A DNA stretch of 61,573 nucleotides, filler included, from Sphacelaria rigidula (taxonomy: Eukaryota): assembly GCA_964200075.2 (NCBI GenBank). It is 8 parts of 8 records of this genome, joined end to end, with 100 filler letters (N's around TTAATTAATTAA, not from the genome) between each part and the next. Parts side by side here need not be neighbours in the genome. Positions count along the whole stretch, not along the records: positions 53,965 to 61,573 come from CAXNAA020014110.1; 7 more parts are not named here. One strand, written 5' to 3'. A model generated the notes under the pieces. It saw only the letters and a list, made by a program, of their open reading frames with translations, did no database searches and had not been told where the DNA came from. Shown here piece after piece: positions 53,072 through 61,573 of this stretch; positions within the stretch are counted from its first letter, which is position 1; the number at the start of each line of letters is the position of its first letter. The position numbers were made by a program, and so were the translations under genes.

Positions 53072-53863
53072 TCAACTAGAGGGGGCGGACACTCGCAACT
53101 CGAACTTCACGTCGCCATCCTCTCCAGACACCAACCCATTTCGCACTGCCGTATTGGATGGGGATTTCATCGGCCCCACTCTGCGTAGCCGCTTGGCACT
53201 TTTCCTTGCACTGGCGTTACTTCTACCGCAGTTCCTGTCTATGATGTCGCTGGGTATGCGGTTGGCGATGCTTCTGTGCACAATAGATCGCGTAGCACCT
53301 AGTCCGTTGCTCGTTGCTGTCTCTTCACAACCACGCGTCGGAGGGAGAGTCATCTCCATCTTCACCTTCATGCGCGACGCTGCCCGATCCAAACAAAATT
53401 CATCAGCTGACGCAGCGCCTGCGTGCTGTCCCGAGCCAGCAGGCGGCGTGGTAGTGAAATTCACGCCACCTCGACTGGCACGATTGGCACACGACCTGCG
53501 AAGAGTACCAAGGTGATGACCACCGCAGCTTGCGTTGCGACCGGCACCATGCGGATGGTTGAGGTTGCTAATATCTTCCTTGCGGCACCGTGTGCCGTTT
53601 ACAACGACCATGCCCGCCACAGCATGAGTTGCGCAGAACTCCGCTGTTCGGCTACCCGCTACACCAAATGACGGCCATGTGGAGCAGCCCTCTTCGCCGC
53701 ACACCTTGCTTCTTACATTGACCATGCCCTTCCGAGCGTGCGTGGCGCAGAACTCCACCTTTTTGCCACCGGCCACACCGAATGACGCTCGTGTGGAGCA
53801 TCCTTCTTGCTCACACATCTTGCTTCTTACATCGACCATGCCGCCGCGAGCATGTTCAGCGCA
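53072..53863 (-). CDS. EsV-1-7 cysteine-rich repeat protein, 5' end missing
   Basis: Repeats C-x4-C-x4-F(G)-x8-FC-x2-H-x3-GM(V): CEQEGCSTRASFGVAGGKKVEFCATHARKGMVNV and CGEEGCSTWPSFGVAGSRTAEFCATHAVAGMVVV. The frame stays open to the contig end (CAEHARGG), and a low-complexity C-terminus runs to the stop at 53072. Confidence 0.88.
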   Translation of the reverse strand, partial: CAEHARGGMVDVRSKMCEQEGCSTRASFGVAGGKKVEFCATHARKGMVNVRSKVCGEEGCSTWPSFGVAGSRTAEFCATHAVAGMVVVNGTRCRKEDISNLNHPHGAGRNASCGGHHLGTLRRSCANRASRGGVNFTTTPPAGSGQHAGAASADEFCLDRAASRMKVKMEMTLPPTRGCEETATSNGLGATRSIVHRSIANRIPSDIIDRNCGRSNASARKSAKRLRRVGPMKSPSNTAVRNGLVSGEDGDVKFELRVSAPSS

Positions 53864-55223
53864 GNNNNNNNNNNNNNNNNNNNNNNNNNNNNNNNNNNNN
53901 NNNNNNNNTTAATTAATTAANNNNNNNNNNNNNNNNNNNNNNNNNNNNNNNNNNNNNNNNNNNNATCAGCCGCTGTATGGCAATTTTATTCGTGACACTT
54001 TTAGCTGGTTTTGGGGGGGGCTATCGTAGAAAGTGTCGTAGTCGCTTGTGGATAAATGCCGAAATCACGCATGGAAAGTGATCCTAAAGTAATTGTTGTT
54101 TTGCTTGTCACTCAGTATGTACACATGTACAGGTGCTCTACACGATACGGTGTCTCAGTACGAAAGTCCGGCTACAAGCACCCGTTGACAGAACATTATA
54201 GGCAGCAATCCTTTTTGCGTACTACCCGCGACGAGAAGAAGTTTTTCCAAGCATAATGCCAGTGCGACAGCGACGCCTGTTGCAGAATTTAGTCAGTCGA
54301 CAACAAGCATATATCCCATGGTCACACTGTCTTCGTGTTTCAAGCTTGTGCCATGTGCTAGCGGAATAGGCCGGGATGGTCTGTGTGAGAAGCCAAAGCA
54401 CCCTGCTCGTCAGTGAGCATGTACCCCCGCAAGGGGTTCGCCACTTGATCGCCGTGAAGGCTATCGTCGCGTGCTTAATCCGCCCTTCTTGTTGGCGTAC
54501 GCGATATTTCCGTTTGTTTTGTCTGTGAGCTGACCTACCCACTAACGGATCTGAGTTAGTTGCGATGCTGTGGTGCCGCGTCTCGCACGAAATCGACTGG
54601 TTCGCCCCAAGAATGTATTGGACGCGAAACCATTGCGCTCTCAATCTTGACTTCAGGACGGGTAATGTAAGTCGGCCTTCACTGGGTGGCACGGTTTCCT
54701 CGCGTATTTTTGCACCCACTGGTGCTGGTATATGATTGTTCTGGCTTGATCGGTATGCCTTACATTAATGTGATATAAGAACAACAGTCTCATCGTTACC
54801 CATGAAGGATTGCGCATTAGCCGCCGAAGACTCAAGACAAAATTGAATTTCAGGTACTGTACCGACCACGTTCCACGGAAATCCGCACAAGTTGAGTAGT
54901 TTACCGCCTTTCGGAGTAGAGGCTATTTCTCTACGACCTACCGTATTCCACTAAATGTCTGCACAGGAAACTCTACGCTTTCACCTGCCAAGCCTTTGCG
55001 CTCCCTCTGCCGTCTTGCACGTCTTTTTACCGAAGTTGAAGGAGTGTGGTAATAATGTCGAAAACTGAGCAAGTCGCCTGAAAAGATCGGGAGAGAAAAA
55101 CCGTACTCATGTGAACCTTACTAGTACAGCGGAGGCGAAGTACTGTGCAGCCATATCGCCATCATTTGTGGGTTGTGCCACTGACAATTCCAACGTTATA
55201 CGTATATATTACGAGTGTTCGTA

Positions 55224-55254
<31 letters not shown>

Positions 55255-55724
55255 TATTGAACGGCATGAAGAAGTTGATGAACAATATCTAAGCGTCATG
55301 AAGTTGATGGAGAGTATCTAAACGTTAGATTTGGAAAATTTGCCGCAGGATCATTCCTAGTGATAGCTGAATCAATGGAAAGCAACACCATGGGTGATGA
55401 CGCTCGCATGACAGTGGTTGCACTGTAGAGGCTGGTATCTAATCATGGTTGTATATCTGACCAACGACTGATGGCTCACGTCGCGCCCCCACCCCCCCTC
55501 CTTGCTCCGTTCACGCCGTTTTCCACCACCGCCTGGCATCACGACCATCTTCATCCCTATCCTGGCGGCGACATGATCATTACGCTAACGGATGGATTAT
55601 CGCGAAACAAAATGGAAAAAAAAAAAACCTCGTGCGGAAAAAACAAAACACAACCGAAAACCGCCGAAGACACCTCCAACATGGGAAGACTTCCCAACAT
55701 TCGCGAACAAACAGCACACGCCGA

Positions 55725-58700
55725 TGTCGTCGTCGTCGTCGTCGGGCTACTCTCCGCACCACCCCAACACCGCTATCAAGGCGCTACCATCGAGCGGTCA
55801 GCAACAAACATCTCTTATGAATCTTTCGGGAGCGATGGGAAGATCCAGTGTTTTCGCACTTCCCCTCATGCGTGGAGATCGCCCACAGTTGCCAGCTTTC
55901 GGTTCGCCGTGCCTGGCCGGTGGGCCGCAGATGAACAGCGGCAAGCAGTCGCTAGGGGGACTCTTGGGTGTTGGCTCTTTCTCCTCGAGCCATGGCGGGG
56001 AGAGCGATCTACAAGGTATTCTGTTATTGTAGACATGGACCGAATTGCTAGACTCATCTGAAAACGCCGAAACCTACTGAATGCAATGTATTCATCCACA
56101 GTGTATCTTGGAACCCAAACCTGTGCCCTTCATTGCTTCAACGTATGTCGGGGGGAAACAGAGACGGGTTCGGATTCGTAGCGTATCCGTTGTTGTGCGG
56201 CAATCAGTCAATCCGTTAGAGGGTCACTCGGAAAAGAAGAACATGATAACTGGAATGAACTCGCGCGATTCATCTGTAGAAAATATTCACTTTGATATGC
56301 TTATCCAAATACCACGCAAGTCTAGTCTCACAAGCTGTCACTCCAAGAGTCTTTGTGAAACAGAACATGAGAGGAACGGCATGCTGTGCTGTGCGTTCTG
56401 CTAGCGCGCTCACTCATGTTCGACCAGGCGTAAGGCTCGAGGTTGGTTCCGTGTCTCGAGCGAGGGCTACTATAGCGATTCATATGCTTCGACCAAAAGC
56501 AGGAATACACGCAACCGTAGTTCATGTCTCGCGAACGGCAAGGGTCGGAAAGAGCACCGATCCCCACGCCGTGGAAATAAATCACGAGCACATATTCAAT
56601 GACAGAACCGTACCAGTCACTCACCATGTGAGGCCACAGAAAACTAAATCGGTTGCACACAATATTTCGAGCTACTCACTAGCGGGCAAAGCTTGTTCGT
56701 GTCAGCACAAAAGGACCATCGCAATGACCATTTTGATTCTTAAACCGGTCCTCGGACTTTGTTTATGAAAATAAAAGCTGTTCCTAAATATAGTTCTAAG
56801 GTACTCGTGTCATTTATTTTTCTAACGGTCTTCGCCGGCGAATGTTCCCGCCACTGCGTCGCATGTGATGAGTAACTCGATCTGATCTGCACATACATAC
56901 GAAATACCTCGCCTTGGTTGCAAAATCCCCGAAAGCTTTGCCGTGTCGTGCCGAAGGAGTGACAAGGATGGAAAACCGCGCCTCCCTGTATGTCGATGTA
57001 ACGTGTACTCGTAGCCGCGGCGAGCAATCCTGGGGGAAGCATGTCGTCGGGAGGCGCCTCGATGCCCTCACTGTCCTCAATGATGAACCACAGCGGCCAA
57101 GGATCGCTTGCCGCTTGGCACGCTAGTGGAGGCGGGGAGGTCGGGGGTAAGGATGGAGGTGGAGGGGATCGCGCCTTGGGAAGTTGCGTCAAGGTACTCT
57201 TGAGTGGGCCATAGGGATGCATATGCCAAGTATTGTCTTGATACGGGACTTCTCTCATAGTTTCCTTGCGCACACCGTTGTACTCGCGACGCTACGGAAA
57301 TGTACTTGCTCGCAAACACACAACAGCCACAGCCTACCATCATGCTGTACAAGTGTACTGTACAAACGAGTAAAAAGAACACCGTTGGTACTAAAATTGC
57401 TGAAGGTAACCTCCAGTCATAATTTCACGTTGTGATTTACTTTCGTGGAAATCTATATAGTAAAGCAATACCATGCATTCGGGTACCGTCTGAGACCAAT
57501 AATTCAGGGTGACCGGCACGTGTTGTCTGTCCGATACTACATTGAAAATAGACGCCCTTCGATGTGTACAACGTACTTAAATTTCTTGGTACTTTCCCGT
57601 TCCGCATGCTACTGTATCGAGCGCGTCTCCCCCAGCTCCCTAGAGATGTGCGATTGCTATGCTGTTGTCATAAGGTTGAAAGACGATTATCGCCATGCCT
57701 TCGCAGGCCCGTGGATTTGGTACTTGACACCTTGTTTTGAGAGGTATCTTGTGAGGGTTGCACATATGATCTGTCGAATTAGGGATATTAGGGATAGGCT
57801 ACAGTTCACTTGCAATCTCGAAAAGAAATTTACTGGAAGTCACTCAATACGGCAAGACGAGTGACAGCCCATTGGGCGAGCGATATGAAACAAGAGAGGA
57901 CATGAATCCTGTCATTGAAGAAGACCTTTAACTAACCTTCAGCGTGACTAAGGGGACATTGCTACGAAGGGCGTTATCCGGCTATCAGATATAGCTGCTA
58001 GCTGTGAGATACAGCTGGGCTGATCTGCATCGAGCACGAAGTACTTGGCTAGTGAACATCAGTGCAATGTAACCACTTTACTCTGTCCCGTAGTAGTCAT
58101 GACAAAAGGACTACACCAGTGGCAACTCCACGCATAGAAACGCCTCATCTGCGTGAACATGGAAACATACCTCTTTTCAAGACTCGCGACCGTTGACTTT
58201 CCCGTTTTCAGTGGGCAGCTGAGACCTACCCTTACGCACGTCTCAATTTTACGCCATCCATGAATCTGTCCAGCCTCTCAAGCAGTCATGCCCTCCTGCC
58301 TATGTAGACTGTGTTGCTGTCATCAACCATCCACAGTTCAGCTTTTTATTTTGATCTTTGCGTTCTCCGCCGTGCTCACGGCACGCGACACTTGCCCGAA
58401 ACTTCATGTATGGGCACTTGTTTCCTGCGTCGAGAAATATGCCGAATTCGTCCCATGAGCAAATTAGGGGAGTGCCCGTTGCACATGTGGCAAAGCTGAA
58501 ATGATCCCATCCCGACCGCCTTACATCTTTGGGCGATACCCGCAGGCCGAAAGCACAGCGGCCAGAAGCGTACCCAACATTGGCGACGACACGCAACCAT
58601 CCGCGCACAATCCTGCCCGGAAACCTCCCTCGAACTACAACAACCGAAAGGGTAGTCGCCACCGCCTGACCCCTCAGGCCAAGAGTATCTTGGAAACATG

Positions 58701-60538
58701 GCTGGCCAAGCATTGGCTCAATCCATACCCCACCGAGGACGAGAAAACGTATCTGGCTTCGGCGTGTAGTATCACCGTCACTCAGGTAGGAAAGAGAATC
58801 CCTTTTGCGTCACTTGTTCTAATATTTGCCCCAGTCACTTGGGCGTCACGGTGTGTGCGGTTCGCTGCGGTGCCTATCGTCGCACCGTGCTACGGTATGT
58901 TTGGATGATCTGGATAGATGATATTTTGTGGGTTTCACGGCAATTCTGTTGCTGGAGTTTCAGGTAGAAACCGAATGACATCAGGTTTTGTTCCTGGAAT
59001 ACTGTATCACCGTAAAGCCCAAGTATTATAGGCGTTTTCGATTTGTGATGTGCTTTAAACGGTAGGCGTCTGTATCTCATCCGTTTGAGTCAGCACTGCA
59101 CGGTATCTGAGCGGGAGCAGCTATTTTCGCTGGAGTTCGTCTTGTAAGCTCCGGAGACGAATTTTCGAGTCAAGCGGCGGGACTAGCCTATCTTCATGTT
59201 TTGGGATAGCTCGGCAGATAAAATTCACCTGTGGGTGCGTTCCTGTTTCTTACATTTTGCAAATGTCTGTATCCGAAGTGATGCGGTGGCGTGGCATAAA
59301 GGCATTCATTGGATGGACAGAGAACTTGACGCTTTGCGAGCGGTGCTTGCTGTCGAAGCAGGAAGTGTTTTCTAAAGGAATGTATTACGAATCTATAAGA
59401 AGGGCAAATAACAGTGGGTTCTCGAAAATGGGGTTGAAACAAAAAATTAGGTTAAACTCAAAAGCCGTGCTTTCGCTGACCTAACTTCGTGACAAATGAC
59501 TTTCATGCGGACGACCTCATTCCTCCCGACCTCCCTAAAACTATTTCCGGGTATTTTCAGCCTTCCGCTCCCTCGAAGGGTATGTGCAAAAGGCACACTT
59601 TTGCCTCGATTTCGGGGTGAAAAAAGGACGTTTTGTTTTGCTCAAAATCGTGCTTTCGCACATACCCTTTGGGGAAACGGAAGGCTAAAAATCCCCCGAA
59701 ATAGTCTTAGGTGGGTCGGGAGGGATGGGCTCGTCCGTATGAAAATCATTTGTCATAAACTTAGGTCACGGAAAGCACGGCTTTTGAGTTGTACTCCGTT
59801 TTTATTTTCAACCCCATTTTCGAGAGTCCACTGTCAAATGTACCTATGTGACTGCTCCGCAAGACACCGCTGATATTGAGTCCTATCAATATCAACGTGA
59901 TTTTTTCACTTGATTTAAACGAAGCAAAGACCCCGAAAAATTCCGGCGGAAATTCTGAGACGATCACTGCTGCCCGGTCCATCGCAAGCATGACTTTCCT
60001 GCAGCAACGGTGATTCGAAGGTGATCACCTGTGCTGCGTGCGATGTTTCGTTTGACAGGTGAACAACTGGATGATGAACGTTAGGGTCCGAAGGTGCCGC
60101 ACTAAGAAGATTGGTGTAGCGACCGGCCCCGAACAAATAACCTACCCTACCAAGAAATCGAAAGCGACGGCGATGAACAAGGCTTGCGCTAGCCCGCGTG
60201 CGAAGCGGAACAAGTGCAACGACCAGGAAAACATCGCTAGCAACCAGTCGATCACGGCTACTGACCTGCTGGAGGGAGCTACTGCTCAAAGTAACGGCCG
60301 ACACCCCAACAACAGTAACGACTCTGATCGCAACGACGACATTCTGCCCGATCTATCGCAGTCGCAACATTGCGATGGCAGCAACAGGGACGGTCACAAC
60401 GCCAATGGCGACGGGCAGCACGAGATATTCCCAGGAAAAACCGAGTTCACTGACGATCAACCACCGTGTGGGTACGACCATCAGTCCAGCGGCTACCAAA
60501 GTCCTGTTGGCGTCACGGCTACACCTTGGCACACAGAC
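55725..60538 (+). CDS. TALE-superclass homeodomain transcription factor, multi-exon, ends uncertain
   Basis: Phase-compatible exons about 55670/55725-56015, 57015-57193, 58546-58785 and 60059-60538 (donor GAC|GTGAGT; the frame alternatively stops at 60553). Spliced homeodomain: RKGSRHRLTPQAKSILETWLAKHWLNPYPTEDEKTYLASACSITVTQ|VNNWMMNVRVRR, with the 3-aa loop extension and PYP. Confidence 0.9.
59412..59833. mobile_element. Palindromic MITE (422 bp) inside the homeobox intron
   Basis: CAGTGG.TTCTCGAAAATGGGGTTGAAA...TTTCAACCCCATTTTCGAGAGTCCACTG with arms of about 190 bp. Flanks GCAAATAA / TCAAATGT resemble a degenerate 8-bp TSD. Confidence 0.85.
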
Positions 60539-61573
60539 GTGAGTAGTTGTTGAACTGGGACGTACCAGCGATTGCGGTGTTCACTCCTTCCCTCCACGAA
60601 ATATAATTCAAACTCTCGGTGCTGAGCACTGACCCTTCCAACTTGAGAACACAGCAACTCTACAGGTCAACTTGCAATTTCGACTCATTCTGTCAGACTA
60701 CTTCCAACTGAAGAGTTTTTTTTGTGCTTTCTGAACGGGCCTTAAATAGCAGACAGCTTTAGACACCGTTCGCTTGGCCGACGATTGCCTCTCGTCTGGC
60801 TACCTGCAAGTATTGCCATTGCCTGCGATATGCAGCTTTAGAGCGTGACTCAACTAGAGTTTTTTCTCGAAAATCTCTGCAAAGGTGCTTAGGACAAGGT
60901 ATTTGACAAAAACTAATATGTTCGGCAGCTAATACCCCGGTACTCTAGATGTATTCAGTAGTTTAGCGCTCGATACTCCAGGGACTCGGAGGGTACTGAG
61001 TGCCATATTGAGTCGCCCAGTGCTAAACTGAATATTCGGGCGGGCGGGCGTGTACTCCACGTAGTCGGGGCACTGAGTACTATTTTGAGCACTCCAAGCA
61101 GCAGACTGGGTATGCTGTGGTGGGATCTCCAGATATTCTGAAGTACTCTCCAAAGCACCTATGCATTCCTTGTGTGTTGCGAATAATTTTATGATTCTAT
61201 GGGCGTAAAAGCCATATCGCTTGGCACATCCCACTCCCTGTTGGCACATGCAGGCTGGTCGTTCACTAGTAAACCGGGGTATTTCTGACACCAGGGTTGG
61301 TCGCGTTTCACTCTGAGCCAAATGTTGATGAAATGTTTTTCCAGACCGCGAACACGAGGAATCATACATACAAAACTCGCAATCAAGATTTTTGGCCCCA
61401 CGTTTCCAAAGCAGGAATAGTAGGCGATTGGCGATACAGTAGGCAGTGGCTCCGTTGAGGACAACGATCAAGGCCCCGTTCCCGGTTAGACACCCATGCG
61501 GCAGTGTAAAAGCCGTGGCTGTGTCTGGAAGTGGCGATACCACAAAATAAAGCAACTCATCGTTGGCTGTCAT

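Follow-up and report, generated by a model that had tools for sequence, protein, structure and literature searches.

The window (the whole stretch of 61,573 nt of Sphacelaria rigidula DNA that was analyzed) contains, at positions 55670-60538 on the plus strand, what are very probably exons 2-5 of the ortholog of Ectocarpus Ec-04_000450. This is the third of three brown-algal genes for TALE-class homeodomain transcription factors, and in this reading the gene is transcribed and is spliced as had been proposed upon first-pass annotation. According to Arun et al. 2019 (section 9, PMC6368402), no more than three homeodomain genes are present in brown algae, which agrees with the earlier remark that TALE genes are few in this lineage. 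The gene family, its sequences and a homeodomain alignment have already been published, in Supplementary file 6 of Arun et al. 2019 and, as given in the figure legend, in Figure S11B of Denoeud et al. 2024. As a discovery, the finding thus matters little, and its interest lies in the biology.

When position 58785 is joined to position 60059 (GT..AG, phase 0), a TALE homeodomain of 63 residues is obtained, with a helix 3 that reads V45-N-N-W48-M49-M50-N51-V-R53. The translation across the junction is ...ITVTQ followed by VNNWMMNVRVRRCRTKK. W48, N51, R53 and R55 are retained, and Met is found both at core position 49 and at specificity position 50. Exon 4 (58546..58785, plus strand) is preceded by an AG at 58544-58545 and encodes a basic linker and, starting at 58645, the first 44 homeodomain residues, which comprise helices 1 and 2 with the TALE loop between them. 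Exon 5 (60059..60538, plus strand) encodes homeodomain residues 45-60 (60059-60106), then KKIGVATGPEQITY, which is conserved, and a C-terminal tail that closes with ..PWHTD. As the intron splits the homeodomain between residues 44 and 45, the domain is indeed hidden from the ORF track.

Exon 4 alone matches Pfam Homeobox_KN (PF05920) with an E-value of 7.7e-9 and 35.7 bits, above the gathering cut-off of 24, and the three-residue insertion that separates helices 1 and 2 in the TALE class is present. Up to its last residue, Q44, and with the TALE loop included, exon 4 aligns without gaps to the solved homeodomains of PKNOX1, Exd and Pbx1 (E-values from 8.7e-6 to 3.4e-5). A protein search returned six matches with 71-87% identity, all of them brown-algal or unnamed proteins. 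The first-pass assignment to the brown-algal TALE homeodomain genes is correct. The homeodomain numbering used at first pass is correct: when the Ascophyllum ortholog P0008 is aligned to Exd, sqvnnwmmnvrvr is placed over sqvsnwfgnkrir. This alignment and the translation of the exon starting at 60059 also bear out the replacement of Phe49 by Met and the presence of Met at position 50. Full-length orthologs with the same helix 3 score 56-61 bits over all 40 positions of the Homeobox_KN profile. Thus, the family model accepts a helix with M49.

In the homeodomain, 54-57 of the 63 residues are identical to those of P0003, P0004, P0006, P0007 and P0008, which belong to the third-TALE group, and no difference falls in helix 3. 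Exon 4 has 79-87% identity to brown-algal proteins, and the spliced part as a whole has 42-49% identity to third-TALE orthologs. The flanks typical of the Ec-04_000450 group, NRKGSRHRLTPQAK and KKIG(L/V)ATGPE, were matched in the window by tblastn, and the group's helix 3 NNWMMNVRVRRCRTK is present. Five of the six protein matches read ITV(T/S)Q-VNNWMMNVRVRRCRTKKIG over the same junction; the sixth, P0005, continues into the intron. The orthology call is based on sequence identity and motifs, with the rows of OUROBOROS (ORO, Ec-14_005920) and SAMSARA (SAM, Ec-27_006660) compared by eye. In Denoeud et al. 2024, the homeodomains of the Ec-04_000450 group are aligned as "cluster 2" (legend of Figure S11B). 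All 13 rows of this group in Supplementary file 6 of Arun et al. 2019 (PMC6368402), which represent Ectocarpus and 12 orthologs from Ectocarpales, Laminariales and Fucales, read NWMMN, while ORO reads NWFIN and SAM reads NWFTN. Judged from these sequences, WMMN is a fixed, ancestral trait of the ortholog group and not a peculiarity of the Sphacelaria rigidula genome. The novelty that had been attached to WMMN is therefore lost, since the motif is the normal state of an already described ortholog group, being invariant in its 13 published members.

The remaining exons are located upstream on the same strand. Exon 2 (55670..56015, plus strand; acceptor ..ccgaag|ACA, donor CAAG|gtattc) contains the codons for ..TWED.. 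and for the conserved GRSSVFAL.LMR; its last codon is split after the first base. It was matched by tblastn with Ectocarpus P0004 (E 1.4e-4 over 55679-55999). Exon 3 (57015..57193, plus strand; splice sites cgtag|CC and CAAG|gtactc) encodes a Gly/Ser-rich linker and has a weak tblastn match (E 0.054). Intron 4 (58786..60058, plus strand) has the borders ...ACTCAG|GTAGGA at 58785|58786 and ...TTTGACAG|GTGAAC at 60058|60059. Spliced, exons 2-5 form an open frame of 415 codons with four GT..AG introns. A palindromic high-copy element of 424 nt is found inside intron 4 (59411-59834).

Three junctions are bridged by contigs of runs X6-X8, which are labelled "RNA?" by a tool guess and are presumed to be transcripts. 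The joint between exons 2 and 3 (56013->57013) is seen in X6, X7 and X8 (records 10, 18 and 21), and that between exons 3 and 4 (57191->58544) in X8 (record 22), so that three runs cover the two upstream junctions. The joint within the homeodomain is seen in intron-less contigs of two runs, X6 (record 12) and X7 (record 19), as 58782->60056, which equals 58785->60059 because CAG is common to both sides; the predicted 58785/60059 junction thus holds. Exon joints were taken from paired contig pieces, and uncovered stretches in X6-X8 were not counted as evidence. All three runs come from one study, which is different from that of the best DNA run. In other records, the boundary of intron 4 is seen in unspliced form: five genomic fragments read through after ..VTQ (one of them, P0036, matches the frame of the window itself exactly), and five start at QVNNWMMN behind unrelated residues.

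Exon 5 is followed by a GTGAGT donor at 60539. Given this donor (60538|60539), the coding region extends beyond exon 5, and the stop codon at 60551 falls within an intron. X6 record 13 and X8 record 24 end at 60541, with 67 and 49 further letters, respectively, that are not on the stretch. For annotation, this means that third-TALE gene models split easily, with exon 1 far off and a stop codon that is part of an intron.

In other species, one large first exon encodes an N-terminal domain that is conserved, defines the family and spans about 300 residues. The motifs of this domain in the group are DPLSFFL..GSVADGTFGGRKP..LFRSHRLLQAEAV..VLEQTN..ERRxCHR. Exon 1 was not found in the window: hmmsearch with two ortholog profiles against stop-to-stop frames of at least 12 residues on both strands gave noise outside exons 2, 4 and 5, and none of the 13 motif patterns tried for exon 1 had a credible match in the window. 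Exon 1 would have to sit over 55 kb upstream, unless it is on a different assembly piece. That exon 1 was not found across the 55 kb of the window upstream would also fit a truncated or rearranged copy of the third TALE, either a retained paralog or a pseudogene, that lacks the N-terminal domain. An EsV-1-7 repeat ORF, encoded on the opposite strand 1.8 kb upstream of exon 2, points in the same direction, as do the one or two extra paralogs of the third TALE that Denoeud et al. 2024 describe for some Fucales, and the Ascophyllum model P0008, which is just 284 residues long and lacks the N-terminal domain. We nevertheless consider a truncated copy unlikely. The 415-codon frame is open, and its splice sites are intact. 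X7 record 18 has 756 more letters upstream of 55668 that are not on 53965-61573 and thus come from elsewhere; their length fits that of exon 1 in other species. The record behind P0014 and P0015 likewise has its N-terminal exon predicted as a separate protein, so that gene models split by a long first intron seem to be common in this family.

It is highly improbable that the gene is an ortholog or close relative of ORO or SAM and functions as a life-cycle switch. It belongs to the same class and the same lineage as these two, which are the only brown-algal TALEs of known function (Arun et al. 2019, PMC6368402). By a by-eye count, however, its homeodomain has 25/63 identical residues to ORO and 21/63 to SAM, compared to 54-57/63 for the third-TALE group. 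Helix 3 has WFIN in ORO and WFTN in SAM but WMMN here, and the flanking motifs YNNRKGSRHR, KKIGVATGPEQITY and GRSSVFAL match third-TALE proteins only. The first-pass annotation had left the choice between an ORO/SAM relative and another divergent TALE; the latter proved right, in the form of the Ec-04_000450 ortholog, while kinship to ORO/SAM is not upheld. Upon homeodomain comparison, both individual assignments were rejected, as ENWFINIR of the ORO helix 3 and SNWFTNKR of the SAM helix 3 are lacking.

The chance that ATGATG arose by a mistake in sequencing or assembly, in place of a canonical TTY-ATH (Phe-Ile), is negligible: the one point in its favor is the general rarity of Met49 in homeodomains, but the same letters are found in contigs of X6, X7 and X1, and the same Met-Met residues in 13/13 published orthologs and in 8 library representatives. 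The codons are located at 60071-60076, within W48-M49-M50-N51 (60068-60079). Over 60056-60365, no differing letters are seen in the intron-less contigs (X6 and X7) or in the DNA-like run X1, which may be the same sample that the window was assembled from. The ATGATG codons therefore stand.

The N-terminal domain of the group is predicted to consist of three long helices, which we take as a putative protein-interaction module. An AlphaFold2 model of the Ectocarpus ortholog P0004 has pLDDT values of 55-84 across these helices, and a Foldseek search with the whole model returned homeodomains alone and nothing for the N-terminal helices. No PBC, Meis_PKNOX_N, KNOX1/2 or POX domain was found by Pfam in the orthologs P0004, P0008, P0012 and P0017, with E-values of up to 10 considered. 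When an N-terminal profile from nine sequences was compared by hhalign to one protein each of PBC, MEIS, KNOX and BELL/POX, the probabilities were 0.4, 0.2, 2.4 and 0.1%, a weak comparison because the templates are single sequences. Membership in the PBC, MEIS, KNOX or BELL class was rejected, as neither Pfam nor hhalign detected a class-specific N-terminal dimerization domain.

The homeodomain of the same model, which represents P0004 and not the window protein, has pLDDT values of 84-93 over residues 470-530 and adopts the three-helix homeodomain fold (475-487, 496-506 and 510-533). It superposes on Exd (4cyc_B) with a TM-score of 0.90 and an rmsd of 1.0 over 56 columns. Among the Foldseek matches listed for P0004, the top 29 are all TALE homeodomain chains, Exd being the best; the E-values are weak (5e-3) because the query has 620 residues, most of which are disordered.

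In homeodomains, helix 3 sits in the major groove of the DNA. Following this established mechanism, M49 would fill the place of Phe in the hydrophobic core, and M50, together with V52 and V54, may confer a half-site preference that differs from those of ORO (W-F-I-N) and SAM (W-F-T-N). Among the three brown-algal homeodomain genes, the third TALE is the only one for which the literature search found no reported function, and its recognition helix is frozen in a noncanonical form. The search found no DNA-binding experiment and no binding specificity for it either. NWMMN and WMMNVR had 0 occurrences in the full-text literature search, and among the WMMN matches listed, none concerns proteins. 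We offer a tentative and rather doubtful speculation that the W-M-M-N-V-R-V helix, which is invariant in brown algae and is also found in at least two divergent relatives, might read a half-site that no W-F-x-N homeodomain reads. The third TALE could then be a regulatory axis apart from ORO/SAM, or a third partner by which ORO or SAM is redirected to composite sites, and its helical N-terminal domain, for which no kin was detectable, could be a new TALE dimerization module.

Met49 is rare among homeodomains at large. It was found in 54 of 175 helix-3 motifs from the best 150 library matches and is thus not rare among the nearest relatives. Within these 150, other TALEs with M49 keep W48 and N51, mostly as K-K-W-M-A-N-K-R in two-homeodomain proteins; one TALE from Heterosigma akashiwo reads NWMANAR. 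Their residue at position 50 is A, S, T or Y, in contrast to the M49+M50 pair, which was seen only in eight proteins near the third-TALE family (WMMN in eight representatives among the best 150 of the library). Of these eight, P0025 (WMMNVR) and P0060 (WMMNAR) are more divergent full-length relatives. P0041 has the intermediate W-F-M-N, which suggests that Met50 arose before Met49. In a protein atlas, the divergent WMMN relatives are assigned to generic Homeobox_KN clusters, with Ascomycota and Oomycota as the commonest taxa (best score 0.93, with recognition below threshold). A homolog search with P0060 returned no other protein, and an atlas search with part of P0047, a two-homeodomain protein with W-M-A-N, gave scores of at most 0.80.

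Among characterized systems, the PDB sequences that match best are those of animal PBC homeodomains (Extradenticle and Pbx1; E 2.3e-11 with the ortholog P0008), which also include the best fold match (4cyc_B). They share with the third TALE the C-x-I-T-V-S/T-Q-V-x-N-W motif, and in both the residue at position 54 is branched aliphatic. The PBC class, however, has F49 and G50, while the third TALE has M49 and M50, and no PBC domain was detected in the latter. The third TALE falls outside the PBC class.

ORO and SAM, which have known mutant phenotypes and heterodimerize via their homeodomains (Arun et al. 2019, PMC6368402), are TALE-class proteins like the third TALE. The homeodomain is the only domain common to all three, and the flanking domains of ORO and SAM differ from those of the third TALE. 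The closest correspondence is to the Ec-04_000450 group. The gene from the window differs from this group in that the exon for the N-terminal domain is not in the window, that the linker and the C-terminal tail have diverged and that the transcript runs past 60538 into a further exon. It has in common with the group an identical helix 3 (VNNWMMNVRVRRCRTK), the same flanking motifs, GRSSVFAL in exon 2 and the phase-0 intron that interrupts the homeodomain after residue 44.

By its homeodomain, the gene is the known third TALE homeobox gene of brown algae, orthologous to Ec-04_000450 of Ectocarpus, and not a relative of OUROBOROS (ORO) or SAMSARA (SAM). Three homeodomain genes, all TALE (ORO, SAM and Ec-04_000450), are described for all brown algae by Arun et al. 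(2019, eLife, PMC6368402). In the homeodomain column of their Supplementary file 6, helix 3 reads NWMMN in 13 of 13 rows of the Ec-04_000450 group, which represent Ectocarpus and 12 orthologues from Ectocarpales, Laminariales and Fucales. The homeodomain from the window is identical to those of the third-TALE proteins P0003, P0004, P0006, P0007 and P0008 at 54-57 of 63 positions, without differences in helix 3. The assignment rests on this identity, the shared motif and the lower identity to ORO and SAM. A search with exon 4 (58546-58785) returned six proteins at 71-87% identity, from Scytosiphon, three Ectocarpus species, Ascophyllum and one more; five of these continue over the same junction into VNNWMMNVRVRRCRTKKIG, and the sixth reads into the intron. 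WMMN is the normal state of the third TALE and the feature is already known, an outcome that the first-pass annotation had itself named as lowering the novelty of its proposal.

These homeodomains are aligned as "cluster 2" in Figure S11B of Denoeud et al. (2024, bioRxiv 10.1101/2024.02.19.579948), where extra third-TALE paralogues are reported for some Fucales. Two distinct third-TALE N-terminal exon copies (P0014 and P0015), found on a single record of 505,741 bases, fit such extra paralogues.

Exon 4 alone matches Pfam Homeobox_KN with 35.7 bits (cut-off 24; E 7.7e-9) and its alignment to the solved TALE homeodomains of PKNOX1, Extradenticle and Pbx1 is gap-free up to the last residue of the exon, Q44, which bears out the TALE class. 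When an orthologue is aligned to Extradenticle, W-M-M-N lies over W-F-G-N, so that the residue numbering proposed earlier is right. The homeodomain is complete, with W48, N51, R53 and R55 retained.

The gene model was derived from contig joints, splice-site contexts and homology. It consists of exon 2 (55670-56015), exon 3 (57015-57193), exon 4 and exon 5 (60059-60538). When spliced, these form an open frame of 415 codons, and every intron is GT..AG. The donor of intron 4 (ACTCAG/GTAGGA at 58785/58786) and its acceptor (TTTGACAG/GTGAAC at 60058/60059) are canonical, with phase 0 on both sides; the exon 4 frame terminates with ...SACSITVTQ, that of exon 5 opens with VNNWMMNVRVRRCRTKK, and the two Met codons of helix 3 are at 60071-60076. 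The end of the ORF (..VSSC, with the stop at 60551, in the region 60539-60553) is intronic. There is a GTGAGT donor at 60539, and two contigs, one each from the public runs X6 and X8, stop at 60541 and continue with 67 and 49 letters that map elsewhere; therefore, at least one further coding exon follows beyond 60539, outside 53965-61573.

Among public runs, four contain most of the stretch, and four small runs from another study contain 14-20% of its sampled words. The run with the best cover, X1, and three of the small runs (X6, X7 and X8, which share one study and are labelled "RNA?", a guessed kind) were compared to 53965-61573. Pieces from X1 span exons and introns except for high-copy repeats, with 0 other letters. 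One contig each from X6 (record 12) and X7 (record 19) covers 58544-58782 and then continues directly at 60056; this is the proposed junction 58785 to 60059, since the cut slides over a shared CAG. The joint 57191 to 58544 is found in X8 (record 22), and the joint 56013 to 57013 in X6 (record 10), X7 (record 18) and X8 (record 21). No differing letters are listed. Because the X6 and X7 contigs bridge the junction without differing letters, intron 4 is removed in the way that the first-pass annotation had proposed, and ATGATG is the genuine codon sequence. In intron 3, contigs from X6 and X7 cover about 57338-57520 and are each preceded by 255 loose letters, and X6 has another at 57674-57824; candidates are an alternatively used exon, antisense transcription or a repeat.

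The third-TALE family has a well-conserved N-terminal domain with three long predicted helices (residues 143-251 of P0004, the Ectocarpus orthologue; pLDDT 55-84). Neither a Pfam match nor profile similarity to PBC, MEIS-N, KNOX or POX (a single example of each) was found for it; our guess, drawn from the analogy to other TALE proteins, is that it may be a protein-interaction module. In nine genomic records from other species, this domain is a single large exon ending in ..ESQQ before GT. This exon 1 was not detected in the window by two profile searches in all six frames or by 13 motif patterns, as would be expected of a truncated paralogue devoid of it. Such a paralogue is less likely, however, as the 756 letters that precede exon 2 in X7 record 18 lie off 53965-61573 and match exon 1 in size. 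Most likely, exon 1 is located beyond a first intron of more than 55 kb, or beyond an assembly break. Paired runs of 44 N, 12 bases apart, recur every 7709 bases (7611, 15320, 23029, 30738, 38447, 46156 and 53865; also at 324-333). They resemble masks more than assembly gaps and are too short for exon 1 to hide in.

An ORF with repeated Cys motifs (53075-53863, minus strand; Pfam EsV_1_7_cys, E 2.3e-34, 117 bits) lies on the opposite strand, 1.8 kb before exon 2, and is probably enclosed by the long first intron; high-copy repeats also intervene. EsV_1_7_cys is a family of brown algae and phaeoviruses that includes the IMMEDIATE UPRIGHT gene. Intron 4 contains a palindromic element of 424 nt (59411-59834), whose 182-nt arms are 60 nt apart and 83% complementary. 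Its summed contig depth in X1 is about 52,000-209,000 vs about 25 in the flanks, and it is also present in the RNA-like runs (run kind guessed); it resembles a MITE-like repeat of very high copy number. Very high copy number also marks two other stretches, 53965-54040 and 61331-61573, with summed X1 depths of about 124,000 and 394,000, respectively, and depths of about 750-25,000 in X6-X8; contigs often break or branch at 54037-54040. A frame of 214 codons (60929-61573, minus strand), open at the end of the window, has no Pfam match.

When 1.84 billion representatives were scanned by HMMER with the Ascophyllum orthologue (P0008) as query, 3,524 matches had an E-value of 0.001 or lower. Among the best 150 of these, 118 have one or more recognisable helix-3 motifs, for a total of 175 motifs, with position 49 being Phe in 108, Met in 54, Leu in 12 and Tyr in one, a ranking biased toward Met49 because the query carries it. 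The Met49 cases are mostly K-K-W-M-A-N-K-R in two-homeodomain proteins. P0042, P0047 and about 35 others have two TALE homeodomains, the first with K-K-W-M-A-N-K-R and the second with K-S-W-F-A-N-K-R. A table in PMC6368402 lists TALE proteins with NWMANAR (Heterosigma) and NWTTNVR (Phaeodactylum). Judged from these motifs, position 49 is variable rather than invariant among the nearest TALE relatives. Within the same best 150, Met50 occurs in 12 proteins and the M49-M50 pair in only eight: P0006, which represents Ectocarpus, five fragments of exon 5, and P0025 and P0060, which are divergent proteins of full length. P0025 reads WMMNVR and has an N-terminal domain that can be recognised, and P0060 reads WMMNAR. 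P0041, with W-F-M-N, is a possible intermediate state. In the Ectocarpus-like P0118, EQVNNWMMRVRAF stands in the same frame some 30 residues ahead of where exon 5 truly begins, and is a short decayed intronic duplicate of the helix-3 exon start.

For the Ectocarpus orthologue, the structure model shows a three-helix homeodomain with high confidence (pLDDT 84-93), and this fits onto Extradenticle with a TM score of 0.90 and an rmsd of 1.0 across 56 columns. By the established homeodomain mechanism, helix 3 would lie in the major groove. Residue 49 would pack into the hydrophobic core, making Met a conservative replacement, while residue 50 would point toward the bases and help to determine the half-site. 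Together with V52 and V54, M50 may confer a site preference unlike that of ORO and SAM. The third TALE is expressed in male gametophytes of Saccharina, as stated in PMC6742357, and PMC12629598 describes a comparison of Ectocarpus and Dictyota expression profiles for it, ORO and SAM. What remains of interest is that the literature searched reports no function for the third TALE and, in full text, holds no discussion of the WMMN helix (among the matches listed, none was about proteins).

The first-pass annotation had suggested an ORO/SAM relative or another brown-algal TALE. Class and lineage were correct and the second alternative applies; the first is rejected. ORO and SAM belong to the same TALE class, but their helix 3 reads NWFIN and NWFTN, respectively (PMC6368402, Supplementary file 6), vs NWMMN in the gene from the window. 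Its homeodomain is identical to that of ORO at only 25 of 63 positions and to that of SAM at 21 of 63, as counted by eye from the Supplementary file 6 rows.
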